Origin: Betaproteobacteria bacterium
GTDB taxonomy: Bacteria > Pseudomonadota > Gammaproteobacteria > Burkholderiales > JAEUOS01
DNA length: 64,000 nucleotides
Direction of reading: 5' to 3'
Assembly: GCA_028292405.1 (NCBI GenBank)
Contig: JAQGMJ010000049.1
Coordinates: 257,353 to 321,352 of the forward strand
The translations under genes were made by a program, and so were the position numbers. Shown here one piece after another: positions 13,476 to 21,775 of the stretch. The notes below the pieces were generated by a model. It made no database searches. It saw only the letters and a list, made by a program, of their open reading frames with translations, and had not been told where the DNA came from. Each line of letters opens with the position of its first letter. The first letter of the stretch is position 1.

Positions 13476-15383
13476 TTACGCTCTGCGCGCCACTTCATCG
13501 CTAAGACGCTCGATCAAGGTGGTGAGGGGCATGGAACCTAAGTCCACATTACCCCGGGCCCGGACGGCCACCGTGCCTGCTGCCACCTCCTTGTCGCCTA
13601 CGACAATTTGGTAAGGCACCTTCTGCAGACTATGTTCGCGTATTTTAAACGAAATCTTGTCCGGGCGCAAATCCGAATCCACCCTAAATCCCTGTTTTTT
13701 TAGGGATTGTTGTACCTCGGCAGCATAATCAGCCTGATGCTCCGTGATTGGCATCACCACCGCATGCACCGGCGCCAGCCACAAAGGCAGCGCCCCCGCG
13801 TGGTTTTCCAGCAAAATCCCGATAAACCGCTCCAGCGATCCCACAATCGCCCGGTGCAGCATCACCGGCGTCTTGCGCGTGTTATCCGCCGCCACATACT
13901 CAGCGCCCAGCCGCTCCGGCATATTCGGGTCCACCTGCATGGTCCCGCACTGCCACACCCGCCCCAGCGCATCCTTCAGCGAATATTCGATCTTCGGCCC
14001 GTAAAAAGCGCCTTCTCCCTTCAACTCCTGCCATTCCACGCCGGAAGCATTCAGCGCATCCGCCAGCGCCTTCTCCGCCTTGTCCCAGCTCTCCTCCGAC
14101 CCGATGCGGTTCACCGGCCGCGTCGAAAGCTTGTAAATCACCTCCGTAAAGCCGAAATCCGTATACACCTTCTGCAGCAGCCGCGTAAACGCCAGGCACT
14201 CCTTCTGTATATCGTCCTCGGTACAGAAAATATGCCCATCGTCCTGCGTAAACCCGCGCACCCGCATGATCCCGTGCAGCGAACCCGACGACTCATTCCG
14301 GTGGCAAGACCCAAACTCGCCATAACGCAGCGGCAAATCCCGGTACGAACGCAGCCCCGCGTTGAACACCTGAATATGCCCCGGGCAATTCATCGGCTTC
14401 ACCGCATAGTCACGGTTCTCCGAAGACGTCGTGAACATATTCTCCTTGTAGTTCTCCCAGTGGCCGGAACGCTCCCACAAATGCTTGTCCAGGATCATCG
14501 GGCACTTGATCTCCTGGTACCCATTCTCCCGGTACACCGTGCGCATGTACTGCTCCACCTGCTGCCACACCGTCCACCCCTTCGGGTGCCAGAAAACCAT
14601 CCCCGGCGCCTCCTCCTGCAGGTGAAACAGATCCAGCTGCTTGCCCAGCTTGCGGTGGTCGCGCTTCTCCGCCTCCTCCAGCATATGCAGGTACTGCTCC
14701 AGGTCCTCCTTCTTCGCCCACGCCGTACCGTAAATGCGCTGGAGCATCTCGTTCTTCGAATCCCCGCGCCAATAAGCCCCCGCCAGCTTCATCAGCTTGA
14801 AAAAGCGCAGCTTGCCGGTGGAGGGCACATGCGGCCCCCGGCACAGGTCAATGAAATTCCCCTCCCGGTAAAGCCCGATCTCCTGATCCGCCGGAATCGA
14901 AGAAATAATCTCCGCCTTGTACTTCTCGCCGATCCCGTTAAAAAACGCCACCGCCTCATCGCGCCCCATCACCTCGCGCGTCACCTTCTCATCCTTCTTC
15001 GCCAGCTCCCCCATCTTCTTCTCGATCGCCGCCAAATCCTCCGGCGTAAACGGCCGCTTATACGAAAAATCGTAAAAAAACCCGTTCTCGATCACCGGCC
15101 CAATCGTCACCTGCGCATCCGGAAACAACTCCTTCACCGCATACGCCAACAGGTGCGCCGTCGAGTGCCGGATCATATCCAGCCCCTCCGCATCCTTATC
15201 CGTAATGATCGCAAGCGTTGCGTCATGGTCGATAGCGAAAGACGTATCCACCATCTTCCCATCCACCTTCCCCCCCAGCGCCGCCTTCGCCAACCCCGGC
15301 CCGATAGACGCAGCCACCTCCGCCACCGTCACCGGCTGCTCAAACGAACGCTTGGAACCATCAGGCAACTGCACCGAAACCAT
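13476..15383 (-). CDS. thrS: Threonine--tRNA ligase
   Basis: '[14 protein letters not shown]' TGS N-terminus, editing domain 'HSTAHLLA', class II motifs ('FRLSGEF'-like '[12 protein letters not shown]', '[10 protein letters not shown]', 'GTMQVD'), anticodon-binding C-terminus. Start at the internal ATG 15383. Confidence 0.93.
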
Positions 15384-15396
15384 AATTTTCTCTCTC

Positions 15397-15433
15397 AAAA
15401 AGCAAAAAGGCGCGGGACTCGAAGCCCCACGCC
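15397..15433 (-). promoter_or_regulatory. Terminator-like hairpin in the thrS 5' leader (attenuator candidate)
   Basis: Minus-strand GGCGUGGGG-cuucgag-UCCCGCGCC (9 bp including 2 G-U pairs) followed by UUUUUGCUUUUU. The U-run ends 13 nt before the thrS ATG. Confidence 0.5.
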
Positions 15434-15835
15434 TTTGACCAAATACCAACCTTGAGGCGAACGCGGGCCTTAGCTAAAAACTCCCTGCGTCCGGCTAGTT
15501 CGCGGTGTCATAACGCTCACCTTTCAATGGGTATCGGCTGATGCGGTTAAACGGATGTTGCGGATCCCAAAGAAATACAGCACTGGATCAACATATTAAC
15601 AAGAACGCGGGCGGGGCGCCAGAGCGACAGGACGATGGCATAGAACGGGGGCATATATGCATAAGCAACACTTTAGTCTTATTGTTTTTCAAGGCACATC
15701 AGCGCAAAGTAAGGAGTTGGAAAAAATCGATTTGCAACGAAGTCGCTATCGTTCTTCATGCGACCGGGCCATGCAGCTTGATAACTAGATACGTTCCAAC
15801 AAGATAGCTATTGTTTTAGCTAAAAGGGGAGAGTT

Positions 15836-16687
15836 ATGGAAAAAGAAAAATTTTGGAATTTCACCTTGTGGGATCTAGTAAAAGCAATCTCGACCCTCGT
15901 TGTCGTAGGTGTGGCGTCATACAAATTATTCGCAATGCCGGCTTCTCTTAATATGGATTTTCCGACCCTCCTATCGCTCTTGTTAGCCTTGTTTTCCGTA
16001 GCGCTGTCCGCACTTTTTTACTTCAAGGCGACAGACACAAGCAATGCTTTTTACGACAATACCTACAAATTTACAAAGGATATTGCAGAGTTATTGGTAA
16101 AGATTGAAAGCGGTTTCGGCGAGCGATTGAGGCACCTTGATGAAGGATATTCATCGATGCGAAACTATTTTCAGAATGTTCCCCCAAAACAAGCCGATGA
16201 CGTAGAGAGAACCAAAAAGAAGTTAGAGAATGAAGAGCAGGAAGTTGAAAAGGTTTTAATCGAGCGAAACGCAATAATCCAACAACTTGTTGAAAAATCC
16301 CAGCTACAGCAAGAGGAGAAAAGCCGCGTTCTTGATCAGTTAAGGGCCAAAGAAGAAGAACTAGCTAAGCTGCAAAATGAGGTAAATCGGCTTACTAGGC
16401 GGGTTGTTGTTGAAAAAATGAATAAGAAATCTGGGGCTGAAAGATTTGGTCTTCTACCTTCGTCGCTTGCCGACTATACGGCTGAAAAAGTTGTTCAGAA
16501 GATGGGAGGTCGAGAGGTCGCGGACTTATCCCTGGCTGAGCTTCGACACAGATTCACAAGCCTGATTAATGAACTACCGCGAGGCTATCTTCGAGATCTA
16601 GAGAGCCACGACCTATTTGACGACGGGTTAACGCCAGCCGGCGTTCGATTTGTCAGAGACCTAGCGGCAGGCCGCGGCACTCCGTAG
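15836..16687 (+). CDS. Hypothetical membrane-anchored coiled-coil protein (low-GC island)
   Basis: ATG follows AAAGGGGAGAG. Two N-terminal hydrophobic helices ('AISTLVVVGVASYKLFAM', 'LLSLLLALFSVALSALFYF'). Central E/K/Q-rich heptad-like region. AT-rich codon usage unlike the flanks. Confidence 0.6.
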   Translation: MEKEKFWNFTLWDLVKAISTLVVVGVASYKLFAMPASLNMDFPTLLSLLLALFSVALSALFYFKATDTSNAFYDNTYKFTKDIAELLVKIESGFGERLRHLDEGYSSMRNYFQNVPPKQADDVERTKKKLENEEQEVEKVLIERNAIIQQLVEKSQLQQEEKSRVLDQLRAKEEELAKLQNEVNRLTRRVVVEKMNKKSGAERFGLLPSSLADYTAEKVVQKMGGREVADLSLAELRHRFTSLINELPRGYLRDLESHDLFDDGLTPAGVRFVRDLAAGRGTP

Positions 16688-16711
16688 AGTCGCGCTGCTA
16701 GTTCTAGAAGT

Positions 16712-16725
16712 AAATAAAAGGTTCC
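16712..16725. repeat. Left copy of the 14-bp direct repeat AAATAAAAGGTTCC flanking the retron cassette
   Basis: Identical 14-mer at 18878..18891, with further imperfect similarity downstream (ACTAATCGT / ACTAATTCGT). Confidence 0.6.
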
Positions 16726-16775
16726 TATTACGCTTAGCTCAGGGACTAATCGTTGTTCAGTTAAGCGGATGTCGG

Positions 16776-17729
16776 CTAAATTGTTGGCGCGCCATTGTTG
16801 GTCGGTGGTGATCGCAAAAGAGCAGTCACTTGATTCGAGTCCAGGCGGCGGTAGACCAGATCTAAGACCGTCGGATCCACCGATCTAGCAAACGAAAGCA
16901 ATCCCTTCAGGCGTTCGACTTCTTGGGCAGACAATTTCCCTCTTGCAAAATGGTCAATCATGGCTCGTAATTGACGACGTCGATCGTGCCCAATCGAGAC
17001 CCTACCTTCGTTCGCCAGCGTTAAGCCAGTGAGTGTTCGATTAAATTTCTTCGAGACATTTACCGTTTTTGCGCTATTAAATTCGAGCCTTGGGTAGGCC
17101 ACGCTCTGGCAAAGCAAACGAATGTCTGAATGCAAGTTGTTCAGAGCATTGGGAATACTCGAAGAAAATGCTAGGTCATCCGCGTAGCGCGTATAGAGCG
17201 CTCCACGCTCTCTACATATTTCGGTAGCGCCCAAGTCGAAATCGAACATCAGCGAGTTTGATACTGCTGGAGAGCTAGGAGCCCCAATCGATAACCGGTA
17301 ATCGTCATCTTTTCTATCGCGTTTGAAAAGTATCTGCCTCAATATCCATAAATCATGTTCTGTGTATTGAGGCAAATATTTTTCTGCATGAGCGTTGAGG
17401 TCTGAGAATTTCAGCGATGGGAAAAAGTCTTTGAAATCCAGCTTAAGAAGATATTTATTGGCCGCATGAGGACGCGCATGACGCACGATTGATGCGCCTC
17501 GCCGATACGCTGTAGCCGCATCATGCAGAGGCCAGTCCACGACTGCAGTTGATACAGCCCAACGTTGCAGCATTTTCACTTCGCTTGTGGGCTGAGATAT
17601 AACGCGAGTACCACCCCTTCTCTTGGCAATTTCGTGAGTCTTATAGCGAGTCGGGGCTGTCAATAGCAATAGCTGTAACTCACCGGAACTAAAGGGCAAG
17701 TCTTGTAGCATTCTGAGAAATAAGCTCAT
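16776..17729 (-). CDS. Retron-type reverse transcriptase
   Basis: RT motifs 'LLKLDFKDFFPS', 'SIGAPSSPAVSN', catalytic 'YADDLAFS', retron-like 'RTLTGLTL' (VTG-type motif). About 317 aa with no maturase or endonuclease domain. The ATG lies 2 nt after the upstream effector stop. Confidence 0.85.
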   Translation of the reverse strand: MSLFLRMLQDLPFSSGELQLLLLTAPTRYKTHEIAKRRGGTRVISQPTSEVKMLQRWAVSTAVVDWPLHDAATAYRRGASIVRHARPHAANKYLLKLDFKDFFPSLKFSDLNAHAEKYLPQYTEHDLWILRQILFKRDRKDDDYRLSIGAPSSPAVSNSLMFDFDLGATEICRERGALYTRYADDLAFSSSIPNALNNLHSDIRLLCQSVAYPRLEFNSAKTVNVSKKFNRTLTGLTLANEGRVSIGHDRRRQLRAMIDHFARGKLSAQEVERLKGLLSFARSVDPTVLDLVYRRLDSNQVTALLRSPPTNNGAPTI

Positions 17730-17731
17730 GG

Positions 17732-18667
17732 CTATGCCCTAATAGCCCCGAACTTTGCCAACTGATACGCGTCGTATCGCTGTTTCTCACTTACAACGAG
17801 ATCGAAGGTGGTGCCCTTAAAGCGAAGGCGATCAAAAGGGTCATGGCCAGCCAACGCTGTGTGATCAACATACGGTTCGGCTAATCTAGAGACGTAATAT
17901 TTCGCTGGACCTCGCCTCTGTTCTTTCAGCAACTGAAACAGTAACAGTTGATTCAGTATTTGCTTTAAGCGCTCCTCAGTAAGCCTGACACCATAGTGGG
18001 CGAGTAAAAGTATCAGTTCAGCTTTAGTTATGACATTAAATAGATCCACCAAATCCGCGACTAAAAGTAGCTGATCGCGCGGCAGCTTGGGATCAAAGTG
18101 TTCTTTTTTTGGGGCCGAATCAACACGTGCTTCAAGAGCGCCAATTACCATCTCGACGTCCGGCGCAAAGTCCTCGACTTTCGGTCCGTGCACCGTGCAA
18201 ACGGACTCATCGGCGATTTGTTCCAGCCGACGAAGAGGACCTAACGAAATGTAAGAGATTTTTGGGTGATAGTTGTGCGCGACTATCGCCACGGTCTTAA
18301 AACGGAGCACGTCGTCAGCCGCGAACATCCCGAGTTCTGCGAGCGCACCAGATGTCTCGCAGAAAATCATCACAGCGCGTGAGAGATACCCGACGTCTCT
18401 CTCGAATTCAAGCAAGTCGGGATAACCTTCGAATCTATTCCATTCCCCGTAGTGTTCTGGGAAACGAACCCAGTCCTTAAATCGATGATTTTTTTCGATT
18501 AACGTTTCAAGGAACAGATTTCTCTGAGATATATGTTTCTTCTCAGGAGCGATACTGAGTGGGCCGCCAAACACGAGAATGAATGGCGGCCCCGAGATTA
18601 TTTTCGCAGTAGCAGGGTCGACGCTTGCAATGAATTGTTGTATTGCGTCACGAAGCACGGCACTCAA
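17732..18667 (-). CDS. Putative retron effector, nucleoside 2-deoxyribosyltransferase-like (RcaT/St85-effector-like) with a helical C-terminal domain
   Basis: 'PPFILVFGGP' (beta1-GG) and 'IFCETSGALAELGMFA' resemble NDT-fold motifs. Sits between the ncRNA and the RT, as in Retron-Sen2/St85. Start uncertain (TTG 18667 inside a2, or GTG 18658). Confidence 0.7.
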   Translation of the reverse strand: MSAVLRDAIQQFIASVDPATAKIISGPPFILVFGGPLSIAPEKKHISQRNLFLETLIEKNHRFKDWVRFPEHYGEWNRFEGYPDLLEFERDVGYLSRAVMIFCETSGALAELGMFAADDVLRFKTVAIVAHNYHPKISYISLGPLRRLEQIADESVCTVHGPKVEDFAPDVEMVIGALEARVDSAPKKEHFDPKLPRDQLLLVADLVDLFNVITKAELILLLAHYGVRLTEERLKQILNQLLLFQLLKEQRRGPAKYYVSRLAEPYVDHTALAGHDPFDRLRFKGTTFDLVVSEKQRYDAYQLAKFGAIRA

Positions 18668-18834
18668 TTACCCTTGAATTAGGCACGCAATCGGCCAAAG
18701 ACAATTTCGTGGAGCCTCAGCGGAGCGAAATTGGCTTTGGCCGATTGCGTGCCGTTGATGCAGTCCACCTAAATTCAGTCCGGCGAATCACCAGACAATT
18801 GATAGCCAAAAACGCTACCGAAACGCGTAATTGA
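18663..18834 (-). ncRNA. Retron msr/msd non-coding RNA (predicted)
   Basis: a1 CUCAAUUAC (18834..18826) pairs with a2 GUAAUUGAG (18671..18663). An unpaired G follows a1. Near-perfect 28-bp hairpin (arms 18682..18709 and 18726..18753, 1 mismatch, 16-nt loop). Located right behind a sigma70-like promoter. Confidence 0.65.
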
Positions 18835-18842
18835 GGCGAGTG

Positions 18843-18871
18843 ATTATGAATGCGTTCACATGAGTCGTCAA
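18843..18871 (-). promoter_or_regulatory. Sigma70-like promoter of the retron operon
   Basis: Minus strand TTGACG (18871..18866), 17-nt spacer, CATAAT (18848..18843). The predicted start falls about 7 nt downstream, just before a1. Confidence 0.6.
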
Positions 18872-18877
18872 ATTATC

Positions 18878-18891
18878 AAATAAAAGGTTCC
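18878..18891. repeat. Right copy of the 14-bp direct repeat AAATAAAAGGTTCC
   Basis: Identical to 16712..16725. Lies immediately upstream of the retron promoter -35. Confidence 0.6.
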
Positions 18892-19023
18892 AATCTCGAA
18901 CTAATTCGTGCCTCAAATCAGATCCGTGCTAGTGATAAAGGCTGCACAGCGCCGGCGGAGGCGGAAATGCGCGAGAATCAGGCAAAGCGCGCGCAGCGGT
19001 CCAGCCGTGCGCAGGAGACAATC

Positions 19024-20494: not shown

Positions 20495-20602
20495 CGCAAG
20501 GCCGGTTTTGCCGTGAGTGGAACACTAGTTGCTTGGTCAGCGTGACGTCGCCGGGACGTGCTGCCGCCTCCGTATAATCTCCCCACTATCCGAGCCTCCC
20601 TC

Positions 20603-21775
20603 ATGACCCTCTTTTCCCTGCGCAGGCTTGCCGCCGGCGGCGCGCTGGCGCTGGCGGCGCTCATCAGTGCCCCGGTCGCGCAAGCGCAGGCCCTGCACCC
20701 GCTCTCGCCGGCGTTTCTCGCGACGCTGAATAACGTCGACACCTCTTCCGATGAGATCGGCGCTTCGGTCATGGCCATCAAGAATGCGGACCTGACGTAT
20801 TCGATGTTCTCCCGCGGCCGCGTCGAGAAGGCCATTGCGAACATGGAGCAGCAGTTGCCGGCGCTGAAGGCGCAAACGGCCAGCCTGCGGCGCGAAGAGT
20901 CCTTGCGGGTGCTGCTGGCCATGCGCACGGCGTTTTCAGATGCGCAGCGCAATATCGGGTCGATCTCCGACATCCTGCACGGCGTCACCGTGCGCACCCC
21001 GGCGCAGGCGGACGCGCTCGACAAGCTGCTGGCGCGGCTCGATAGTGCCACCGCGCAACTGGACGCGGCGCTCAAGCGCTTCGACAGCGGGGCGGTGGCG
21101 CTGACGGCGCGGGCTTCGTCCTCATCTGCCCCTGCCCCTGGCCCTGCCTCCGCCCCCGCCGCCGGGCAAGCGCAGGTGCCGATGTCTCCCGCCTCCGTCC
21201 AGGCACAGGCAGGCGCCTCATCCGCGCAAGCGCAGGCCGCAGCTACCCCCGGGCAGGCAGCGGCATCGTCCGCATCCGGCGCCGCGCAAGCGCCGGGCGC
21301 ATTTGCCTCCGCCCCCGCCTCCACGCAGGCGGCGCTGCGCCCGCTGCCGCCGAACCTTCTCGCCACGCTGAAAGACGTAGACACCTCTTCCGACGAAATG
21401 GCGGCTTCGGTGACGGCGGTGAAGAATGCGGACCTGACGTATTCGCTGTTCTCCCGCGGCCGCGTCGAGAAGGTGATCGCGCGCATGGAGAAGCAGTTGC
21501 CGATGCTCAAGGCGCAGACGGCGGATCTGCGGCGCGATGAGTCGCTGGGCGTGCTGCTGTCGATGCGCACGGCCTTCTCGGAGGTGCAACGCGACGTCGG
21601 CTCGGTCTCCGAAATCCTGCACGGCGTCACCGTGCGCACCCCCGCGCAGGCCGACGAGCTGGACCGCCTGCTCACCCACCTGGACGCCGCCGCCGCCCAC
21701 CTGGACGCGGCGCTCAAACGCTTCGACACCGGCGCCCTGGCGATGATCGAGTTGCTGGACAAGCCCGCCCGCTAG
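20603..21775 (+). CDS. Secreted hypothetical protein with two tandem 138-aa domain copies
   Basis: Signal peptide 'MTLFSLRRLAAGGALALAALISAPVAQAQ'. Repeats at 20690..21103 and 21332..21745 are separated by an A/S/P/Q low-complexity linker. Confidence 0.65.
   Translation: MTLFSLRRLAAGGALALAALISAPVAQAQALHPLSPAFLATLNNVDTSSDEIGASVMAIKNADLTYSMFSRGRVEKAIANMEQQLPALKAQTASLRREESLRVLLAMRTAFSDAQRNIGSISDILHGVTVRTPAQADALDKLLARLDSATAQLDAALKRFDSGAVALTARASSSSAPAPGPASAPAAGQAQVPMSPASVQAQAGASSAQAQAAATPGQAAASSASGAAQAPGAFASAPASTQAALRPLPPNLLATLKDVDTSSDEMAASVTAVKNADLTYSLFSRGRVEKVIARMEKQLPMLKAQTADLRRDESLGVLLSMRTAFSEVQRDVGSVSEILHGVTVRTPAQADELDRLLTHLDAAAAHLDAALKRFDTGALAMIELLDKPAR

Follow-up and report, generated by a model that had tools for sequence, protein, structure and literature searches.

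Type II-A1 retrons, as classified by Mestre et al. 2020 (PMC7736814), combine a clade 1 reverse transcriptase (RT) with a non-coding RNA (ncRNA) of the 'IA/IIA1' class and an effector (cluster 42) that joins a nucleoside 2-deoxyribosyltransferase (NDT) domain to a DNA-binding one; Sen2 (St85), Vc81 and Ec73 are the named members, and the type has its RT clade and its ncRNA class in common with type I-A (PMC7736814). In Sen2 of Salmonella Typhimurium (msrmsd-rcaT-rrtT), the RT and the multicopy single-stranded DNA (msDNA) act together as the antitoxin to RcaT, where the RT binds to RcaT and antitoxin activity is made possible by the msDNA (Bobonis et al., bioRxiv 10.1101/2020.06.22.160168), and phage infection activates RcaT toxins (PMC12405559). 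In Eco1 (Ec86), a type II-A3 retron, RT-msDNA holds an N-glycosidase effector in filaments, and modification of the msDNA by a phage methylase leads the effector to hydrolyse NAD(P)+ (both summarised in PMC12673091). Here we analysed a 64-kb stretch of betaproteobacterial DNA from contig JAQGMJ010000049.1 (hereafter the window), which carries on its minus strand a locus that is very probably a complete type II-A1 retron of the Sen2/St85 kind, that is, a tripartite toxin-antitoxin anti-phage system. Its main elements are the following:

16776..17729, minus strand: retron reverse transcriptase of RT clade 1, St85 family, 317 aa (profile matches, motifs)
17732..18667, minus strand: effector of the RcaT/STM3845 family, with an N-terminal NDT-like N-glycosidase domain followed by a winged helix at the C terminus (profiles, PDB, model)
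18660..18837, minus strand: retron ncRNA (msr-msd) of IA/IIA1 type, ~178 nt from a1 start to a2 end (fold, covariance model R1, 29-sequence alignment)
18843..18871, minus strand: sigma-70-like promoter TTGACG-17-CATAAT (consensus match, 10/12 positions)

This layout agrees with the original prediction, made from the letters of the window, which had described the promoter, an ncRNA with 9-nt a1/a2 repeats, an unpaired G after a1 and a 28-bp msd hairpin, and a 317-aa RT starting 2 nt after the effector stop codon; each was found where it had been placed, and the peptide motifs quoted for the two proteins are all present. The order ncRNA-effector-RT, which had been likened to that of Sen2/St85 and is indeed common to Sen2 and the window, is conserved at homologous loci. 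A search with an alignment of effector relatives yielded 36 homologous loci (9 genomic and 27 metagenomic), and the order was the same in 34/34 of those whose contig was long enough. The genomic loci belong mostly to Betaproteobacteria (Burkholderia, Variovorax, Alcaligenes, Zoogloea, Gallionellaceae, Ferriphaselus, Macromonas and Aquabacterium), and no effector relative was found among the IMG/VR viral contigs. An annotated St85-family effector followed by an RT, as in the window, also occurs in an E. coli Eco3 (Ec73)-type locus (L039, NZ_CP128951.1) and in the retron of Pseudomonas phage PfAC04 (L040, OR801192.1). These two reside on mobile elements, L039 on a P4-like satellite prophage with psu and ogr/delta as neighbours, the setting of retron Ec73, and L040 on a filamentous phage, whereas the window cassette is chromosomal.

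The RT carries the YxDD and the other motifs of a retron-clade enzyme. PADLOC, which had been proposed as a check, assigned the models RT_II-A and NDT_II-A to the two genes; the RT scored 355 bits with RT_II-A and 282 bits with RT_I-A, the second-best model, and its 25 best PADLOC matches were mostly retron RT models. It also passed the NCBIfam St85 model retron_St85_RT with 312 bits (cut-off 235), one of its points of likeness to Sen2. Its YADD, its HAxxHA (the family form of NAxxH) and its LTG (the family form of VTG) were invariant in 11 relatives. The closest PDB entries were all retron RTs, those of Ec78/Ec83 at 172-192 bits and that of Ec86 at 103 bits, so that the protein is closer to the type I-A RTs than to the II-A3 one, the pattern that PMC7736814 describes for II-A1. 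Judged from these PADLOC and PDB bit scores, it belongs to clade 1 and not to clade 9, the clade of the Eco1 RT (PMC7736814), which scores 103 bits against ~190 for the I-A RTs. Eco7 (Ec78) and Eco4 (Ec83), the type I-A retrons that hold these closest solved RTs, agree with the window locus in ncRNA class (IA/IIA1) and in RT clade (clade 1) (PMC7736814) and differ from it in their effectors, a PtuA ATPase and a PtuB HNH nuclease, genes for which are absent here.

Pfam recognised nothing beyond the generic RVT_1 domain in the RT, and there were weak matches to Drt2, Drt3a and group II intron maturase models, which could be taken to mean that the enzyme is a non-retron defence RT (DRT/UG, Abi or DGR) or a group II intron RT, with the hairpin upstream being incidental. 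Those matches, however, reached 25-34 bits against cut-offs of 200-390, far behind the retron models, and the RT adjoins a retron-specific effector gene and an ncRNA that is conserved and covaries at 29 loci (see below). This reading is thereby refuted and retains practically no probability, in line with the original prediction, which had named the same families as the ones to exclude.

An RT of identical sequence is listed at NCBI as a 'reverse transcriptase family protein' on a 321-kb contig of a Betaproteobacteria metagenome-assembled genome, and many of the top RT relatives are named 'retron St85 family', from Burkholderia gladioli, Methylotenera, Ferriphaselus, Gallionellaceae, Nitrosomonas and Alcaligenes. 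The host differs from the enterobacterial host of Sen2, and it had been called unusual for a retron; because St85-family RTs are common in Betaproteobacteria, it is not.

The effector was likewise placed in a known family, the RcaT/Eco1-like one to which it had been assigned from its motifs. It scored 221 bits with PADLOC NDT_II-A, over profile positions 1-272 of 279, and 179 bits (cut-off 100) with the NCBIfam equivalog STM3845_fam ('retron St85 family effector protein'), the RcaT model, and it has the NDT-like plus winged-helix architecture of the Sen2 effector. Our Pfam scan gave no match, since the release scanned does not include the new PF28093 (STM3845), the family given for this protein by precomputed annotations. 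A PDB sequence search returned the Ec86/Eco1 effector as the sole match (E = 3.7e-6), the alignment spanning the common core 'ESPGSxxELGxF'. E111 of the window effector aligns with the residue mutated in the 'inactive effector (E106A)' of entry 8qbl, and both E104 and E111 were invariant in 15 relatives.

Structure prediction pointed the same way. The AlphaFold model of the effector, built on the alignment of relatives (pLDDT 84, pTM 0.84), matched only three PDB chains in Foldseek at E < 0.001, all of them Ec86/Eco1 effectors (7xjg_J, 8qbk_E and 8qbl_E; E = 9e-9 to 5e-8, probability 1.00, 283-314 aligned columns), and its C-terminal part had weaker matches to winged-helix DNA-binding proteins. 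The Eco1 effector, known from the cryo-electron microscopy entries 7v9x, 7xjg and 8qbk-8qbm, is thus the sole solved structural match, and Eco1 has the active-site motif, the catalytic glutamate and, presumably, the tripartite logic in common with the window system.

It had been suggested that the effector may be a divergent or new variant. The first part holds: the best relative is 42% identical, and the protein is the sole member of its own 50%-identity cluster. The second does not, the family numbering 1,960 clusters at 50% identity (1,108 of them at E <= 1e-10). The effector is a divergent member of a known family that has kept the family's invariant residues.

The third component, the ncRNA, lies between the promoter and the effector, where the open reading frame (ORF) listing shows no long ORF on the minus strand (~18837 to 18660). 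The predicted fold of a 183-nt stretch, at -86.9 kcal/mol (z = -7.0; 0/200 shuffles folded equally well), has the textbook shape of a retron: a1 and a2 pair to close it, enclosing two small hairpins in the msr and the long one of the msd. Its elements are the following:

18827..18837, minus strand: a1 inverted repeat (fold, alignment)
18826, minus strand: candidate branching guanosine, unpaired, directly 3' of a1 (invariant column G17 of alignment A2)
18801..18819, minus strand: msr stem-loop 1, GGUAGC ... GCUAUC (fold, alignment helix 2)
18778..18796, minus strand: msr stem-loop 2, GUCUGGUG AUU CGCCGGAC (fold, alignment helix 3)
18682..18753, minus strand: msd hairpin, predicted template of the msDNA stem-loop (inverted-repeat search, alignment helices 4-6)
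18660..18671, minus strand: a2 inverted repeat, GUAAUUGAG, prolonged by 2 bp past a bulge (fold, alignment)

In this fold a1, CUCAAUUAC (18835..18827), pairs with a2 at 18671..18663; a2 overlaps the TTG start of the effector and ends just upstream of a GTG start, and the msr holds a second TCAATTGTC that is also able to pair with a2. The branching role of G18826 is proposed on the retron paradigm. The two msd arms (18753..18726 and 18709..18682) are 28 nt each and 96% complementary (a single C-U mismatch), and the loop between them is 16 nt long. Rfam returned no match to a retron ncRNA family; its match of mir-2767 to both strands of 18682-18753 (27 bits, below the gathering score of 69) was discarded as an artefact of the long msd hairpin.

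A long hairpin occupies the same place upstream of the effector at nearly all homologous loci, and we placed a1 in these by the conserved motif TCAATTAC followed directly by G. The resulting alignment, A2, comprises 29 distinct ncRNAs, and its RNAalifold consensus has a layout identical to that of the single-sequence fold. Counted over the alignment, 95.8% of cells are paired and 27/46 pairs show changes on both sides; the covariation score was 0.366, compared with 0.117 in shuffles (0/500 reached it), and sliding the partners by 1-3 columns lowered pairing to 23-46%. Most of this signal comes from the msd stem (helices 4-6), with compensatory changes in 22/23 pairs: its base is conserved (GGCACGAAAUCGG...), and its distal part varies by locus with pairing staying perfect. 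Stem-loop 1 is 97% paired, with changes on both sides in 3 pairs. Stem-loop 2 is 100% paired and nearly invariant in sequence throughout the family, which fits a role in RT recognition and termination, the RT of I-A retrons and of Eco1 having been seen in structures to recognise msr stem-loop 2 and the adjacent linkers and so to set the point at which reverse transcription terminates (PMC12673091). By analogy with Eco7 and Eco1, stem-loop 2 may therefore be the RT-recognition and termination element here as well.

A covariance model built from A2 (R1) found a single copy of the ncRNA in the window, at 139 bits, the top score among all R1 matches. It also matched directly upstream of the effector both in the E. 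coli P4-like element L039 (50 bits) and in the PfAC04 retron L040 (60 bits). A search of E. coli genomes at the DNA level with the ncRNA had given no match; R1 detects it at L039. Its detection at the Ec73-type and PfAC04 loci places the ncRNA in the class of the characterised II-A1 retrons, and it is through this model of our own, together with the gene order, that the IA/IIA1 class was assigned. As a side observation, positions 155-2260 of filamentous phage PfAC04, at the start of its genome record, hold a full II-A-type retron in which the proteins are annotated and the ncRNA is not.

To summarize, the locus has a retron-clade RT, an ncRNA in which a1 and a2 flank msr and msd next to an unpaired G, and an effector with an NDT-like domain and, at the C terminus, a winged helix. 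Its assignment to type II-A1 is directly supported by the family membership of both proteins, the covarying ncRNA, the gene order, the intact catalytic motifs and the match of the effector to the Eco1 fold.

By analogy with Sen2 and Eco1, such a locus would work as follows. A single promoter would drive joint transcription of all three components (ncRNA, effector and RT), and the RT would bind the msr stem-loops and prime from the 2'-OH of the conserved G beside a1. The msd would then be copied into branched msDNA with an estimated length of ~85-95 nt (the 72-nt hairpin, 10 nt from hairpin to a2 and a few nt 5' of the hairpin), including the 28-bp hairpin. The RT-msDNA complex would bind the effector and hold it inactive until a phage protein modifies or degrades the msDNA, upon which the effector, released or activated, would halt the infected cell's growth; it would probably do so by cleaving the glycosidic bond of a nucleotide cofactor, for instance NAD(P)+, via the conserved glutamate E111.

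Several observations weigh against reading the locus as such a functioning Sen2-like system, and they concern the ncRNA and promoter on one side and the effector on the other. The 8-bp core of a1/a2 (UCAAUUAC at 18834..18827, and GUAAUUGA) and the G after a1 are invariant (29/29), so that covariation neither supports nor refutes this helix; the pair next outward (columns 8/199) is formed in 17/29, with three pair types. The proposed covariation check therefore came out in favour of the msd stem and silent on a1/a2, the pairing of which is compatible with the alignment and unproven by it. The putative promoter is a consensus match only, and the region holds 2 sigma-70-like matches where 3.7 were expected, which is no excess. 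The msDNA production, the toxin-antitoxin logic, the substrate and the phage triggering described above are all carried over from Sen2 and Eco1.

Taken together with the C-U mismatch in the msd stem, an effector lacking relatives above 42% identity and a source that is a metagenome-assembled genome, a cassette known from sequence alone and served by such a promoter might be a decaying or inactive retron remnant, in which the genes look intact and expression or msDNA production has been lost. We regard this as very unlikely: both ORFs are full length against the family profiles, the invariant catalytic and structural residues are all kept, the ncRNA scores better on the family model than any other, and the 2-nt spacing between effector and RT is preserved.

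As for the effector, its start codon is uncertain between TTG 18667 (311 aa) and GTG 18658 (308 aa, used by public gene callers), the GTG being the more likely. No classical nucleoside 2-deoxyribosyltransferase was among its Foldseek PDB matches, so that the proposed structural check confirmed the Eco1-effector fold and not a classical NDT fold, and the label 'NDT-like' rests on the family name and the literature. In the structural alignment it is 16-18% identical to the Eco1 effector, with overall TM-scores of 0.44-0.50, and it is ~28-29% identical to its homologues in E. coli, Vibrio and Pseudomonas phage (~28% to the enterobacterial ones found). The msd stem sequence of the window retron also differs from that of Sen2. 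At this distance from the characterised effectors its substrate or trigger could differ from theirs, and the locus could be a functionally distinct subtype within NDT_II-A, with the usual architecture and a chemistry or trigger unlike that of Sen2 and Eco1. Its isolation in a 50%-identity cluster of its own would favour this, as would the state of the literature, in which we found no report of a biochemical activity of RcaT-Sen2 and only the Eco1 homologue has a solved structure (PMC12405559). We nonetheless consider a distinct subtype unlikely, as the effector keeps the active-site motif along with both conserved glutamates and matches the family profiles over their full length, neither the ncRNA nor the RT departs from the family type, and divergence of such size is normal among defence proteins. 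A type II-A1 retron of the Sen2/St85 kind remains the reading that we prefer.

The remaining features concern the setting of the cassette and its borders:

16712..16728: direct repeat, downstream copy AAATAAAAGGTTCCTAT, beginning 48 nt past the RT stop codon (repeat search)
16733..16765: hairpin GCTTAGC...GTTAAGC in the gap between two convergent genes, the RT and the 283-aa ORF (fold)
18878..18894: direct repeat, upstream copy AAATAAAAGGTTCCAAT (plus strand), 7 nt upstream of the -35 box (repeat search)

The retron lies in the chromosome between thrS and a TauD-family gene, with no adjoining phage genes. From ~15500 to 18950 the GC content is 0.42-0.52 compared with 0.57-0.70 on both flanks, a low-GC island as originally described. 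The neighbouring thrS was also correctly recognised (13476..15383; 727 bits, cut-off 384), though an ORF of 283 aa (15836..16687, plus strand), convergent with the RT, stands between it and the retron. At the other end of the cassette, 5-7 nt separate the -10 box from a1. The hairpin at 16733..16765 is not an attC site and is probably a terminator; a terminator scan did not call it.

Elsewhere in the surroundings, a G+C-rich hairpin of 14 bp with a T-run after it (AAAGGCGTGGGGCT TCG AGTCCCGCGCCTTT TTGCTTTTTG; 15406-15436, minus strand) lies a short distance upstream of where thrS probably starts (15383), and could be the terminator of a lost upstream gene or a thrS leader or attenuator. A 405-aa ORF (20558-21775, plus strand) contains two long internal repeats of ~130 aa (ALHPLSPAFLATLNNVDTSSDE... 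and ALRPLPPNLLATLKDVDTSSDE...) with an Ala/Ser/Pro/Gln-rich linker in between, in a very GC-rich stretch (up to 0.74).

The 283-aa ORF encodes N-terminal hydrophobic helices and a coiled coil, with a weak precomputed match to PF28231 STB2_C. Members of its family share 52-69% identity across Vibrio, Shewanella, Pseudoalteromonas, Methylovorus and other genera from several proteobacterial classes. The homologues that we inspected (L041-L046) belong to arrays in which small ORFs, all pointing the same way, alternate with textbook attC sites, and this identifies the family as an integron gene cassette. As a third retron component the ORF was rejected, being absent at 36/36 homologous loci. A simple search for R'' RYYYAAC ... 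R' GTTRRRY, a crude one that overlooks degenerate sites, recovered canonical attC sites from 4/5 arrays with homologues of the ORF and none on either strand of the window or flanking the retron at the 36 homologous loci. The retron was accordingly rejected as a reverse-oriented integron cassette with the direct repeats as attC parts, its borders not aligning beyond the repeat and canonical attC sites not being found; GTTAAGC/GCTTAGC was set aside as an attC part, being a plain hairpin between convergent genes. A 13-nt repeat, GTTAARCGGATGT, around the 283-aa ORF was dismissed as being at chance level in the 3.9-kb region (~4 expected by our estimate, and many similar ones listed).

The direct repeats themselves (AAATAAAAGGTTCC[T/A]AT) are identical at 16/17 positions, 14 nt of them in an exact run, and this 14-nt core occurs exactly twice in the window against 0.01 expected for the pattern. 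They bound a unit of 2,166 bp that runs from promoter to terminator without a recombinase gene. Among 29 loci, exact bracketing repeats of at least 14 nt were found only here and at L027, a metagenomic locus in which a 20-nt repeat lies within two diverged copies (148-214 and 2459-2525; 67 nt, ~85% identity) of the 5' end of the host gene that follows downstream, an ORF of >699 aa; it is a second instance of a II-A1 retron bracketed by repeats. In both cases the repeats have the look of insertion scars specific to the locus. A search for an empty site found none: exact-protein look-ups with the RT, the 283-aa ORF and the TauD-like ORF all gave the same 6-kb Logan contig.

From these borders one may entertain a more specific reading, in which a minimal retron cassette has been caught soon after a discrete insertion beside a former integron-cassette gene. 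We hold this to be improbable. In its weaker variant, the effector may represent a divergent betaproteobacterial clade with a substrate or trigger other than that of Sen2 and Eco1. If the insertion reading were true, II-A1 retrons would be able to move independently, through a mechanism in which a short piece of the target is duplicated.

The locus is, then, well supported yet ordinary, one more II-A1 retron of a well-described family; it opens no new biological question, and its practical value is modest. As a compact and apparently self-contained cassette of 2.2 kb with a long, nearly perfect msd hairpin, it could be a candidate for retron-based editing tools. For the family, the alignment and the covariance model separate the fixed parts of the IA/IIA1 ncRNA (a1/a2 core, branching G, stem-loop 2 and msd stem base) from the distal msd stem, which is free to vary, and the repeat-bounded cassette offers a small, testable clue to how retrons spread between genomes.

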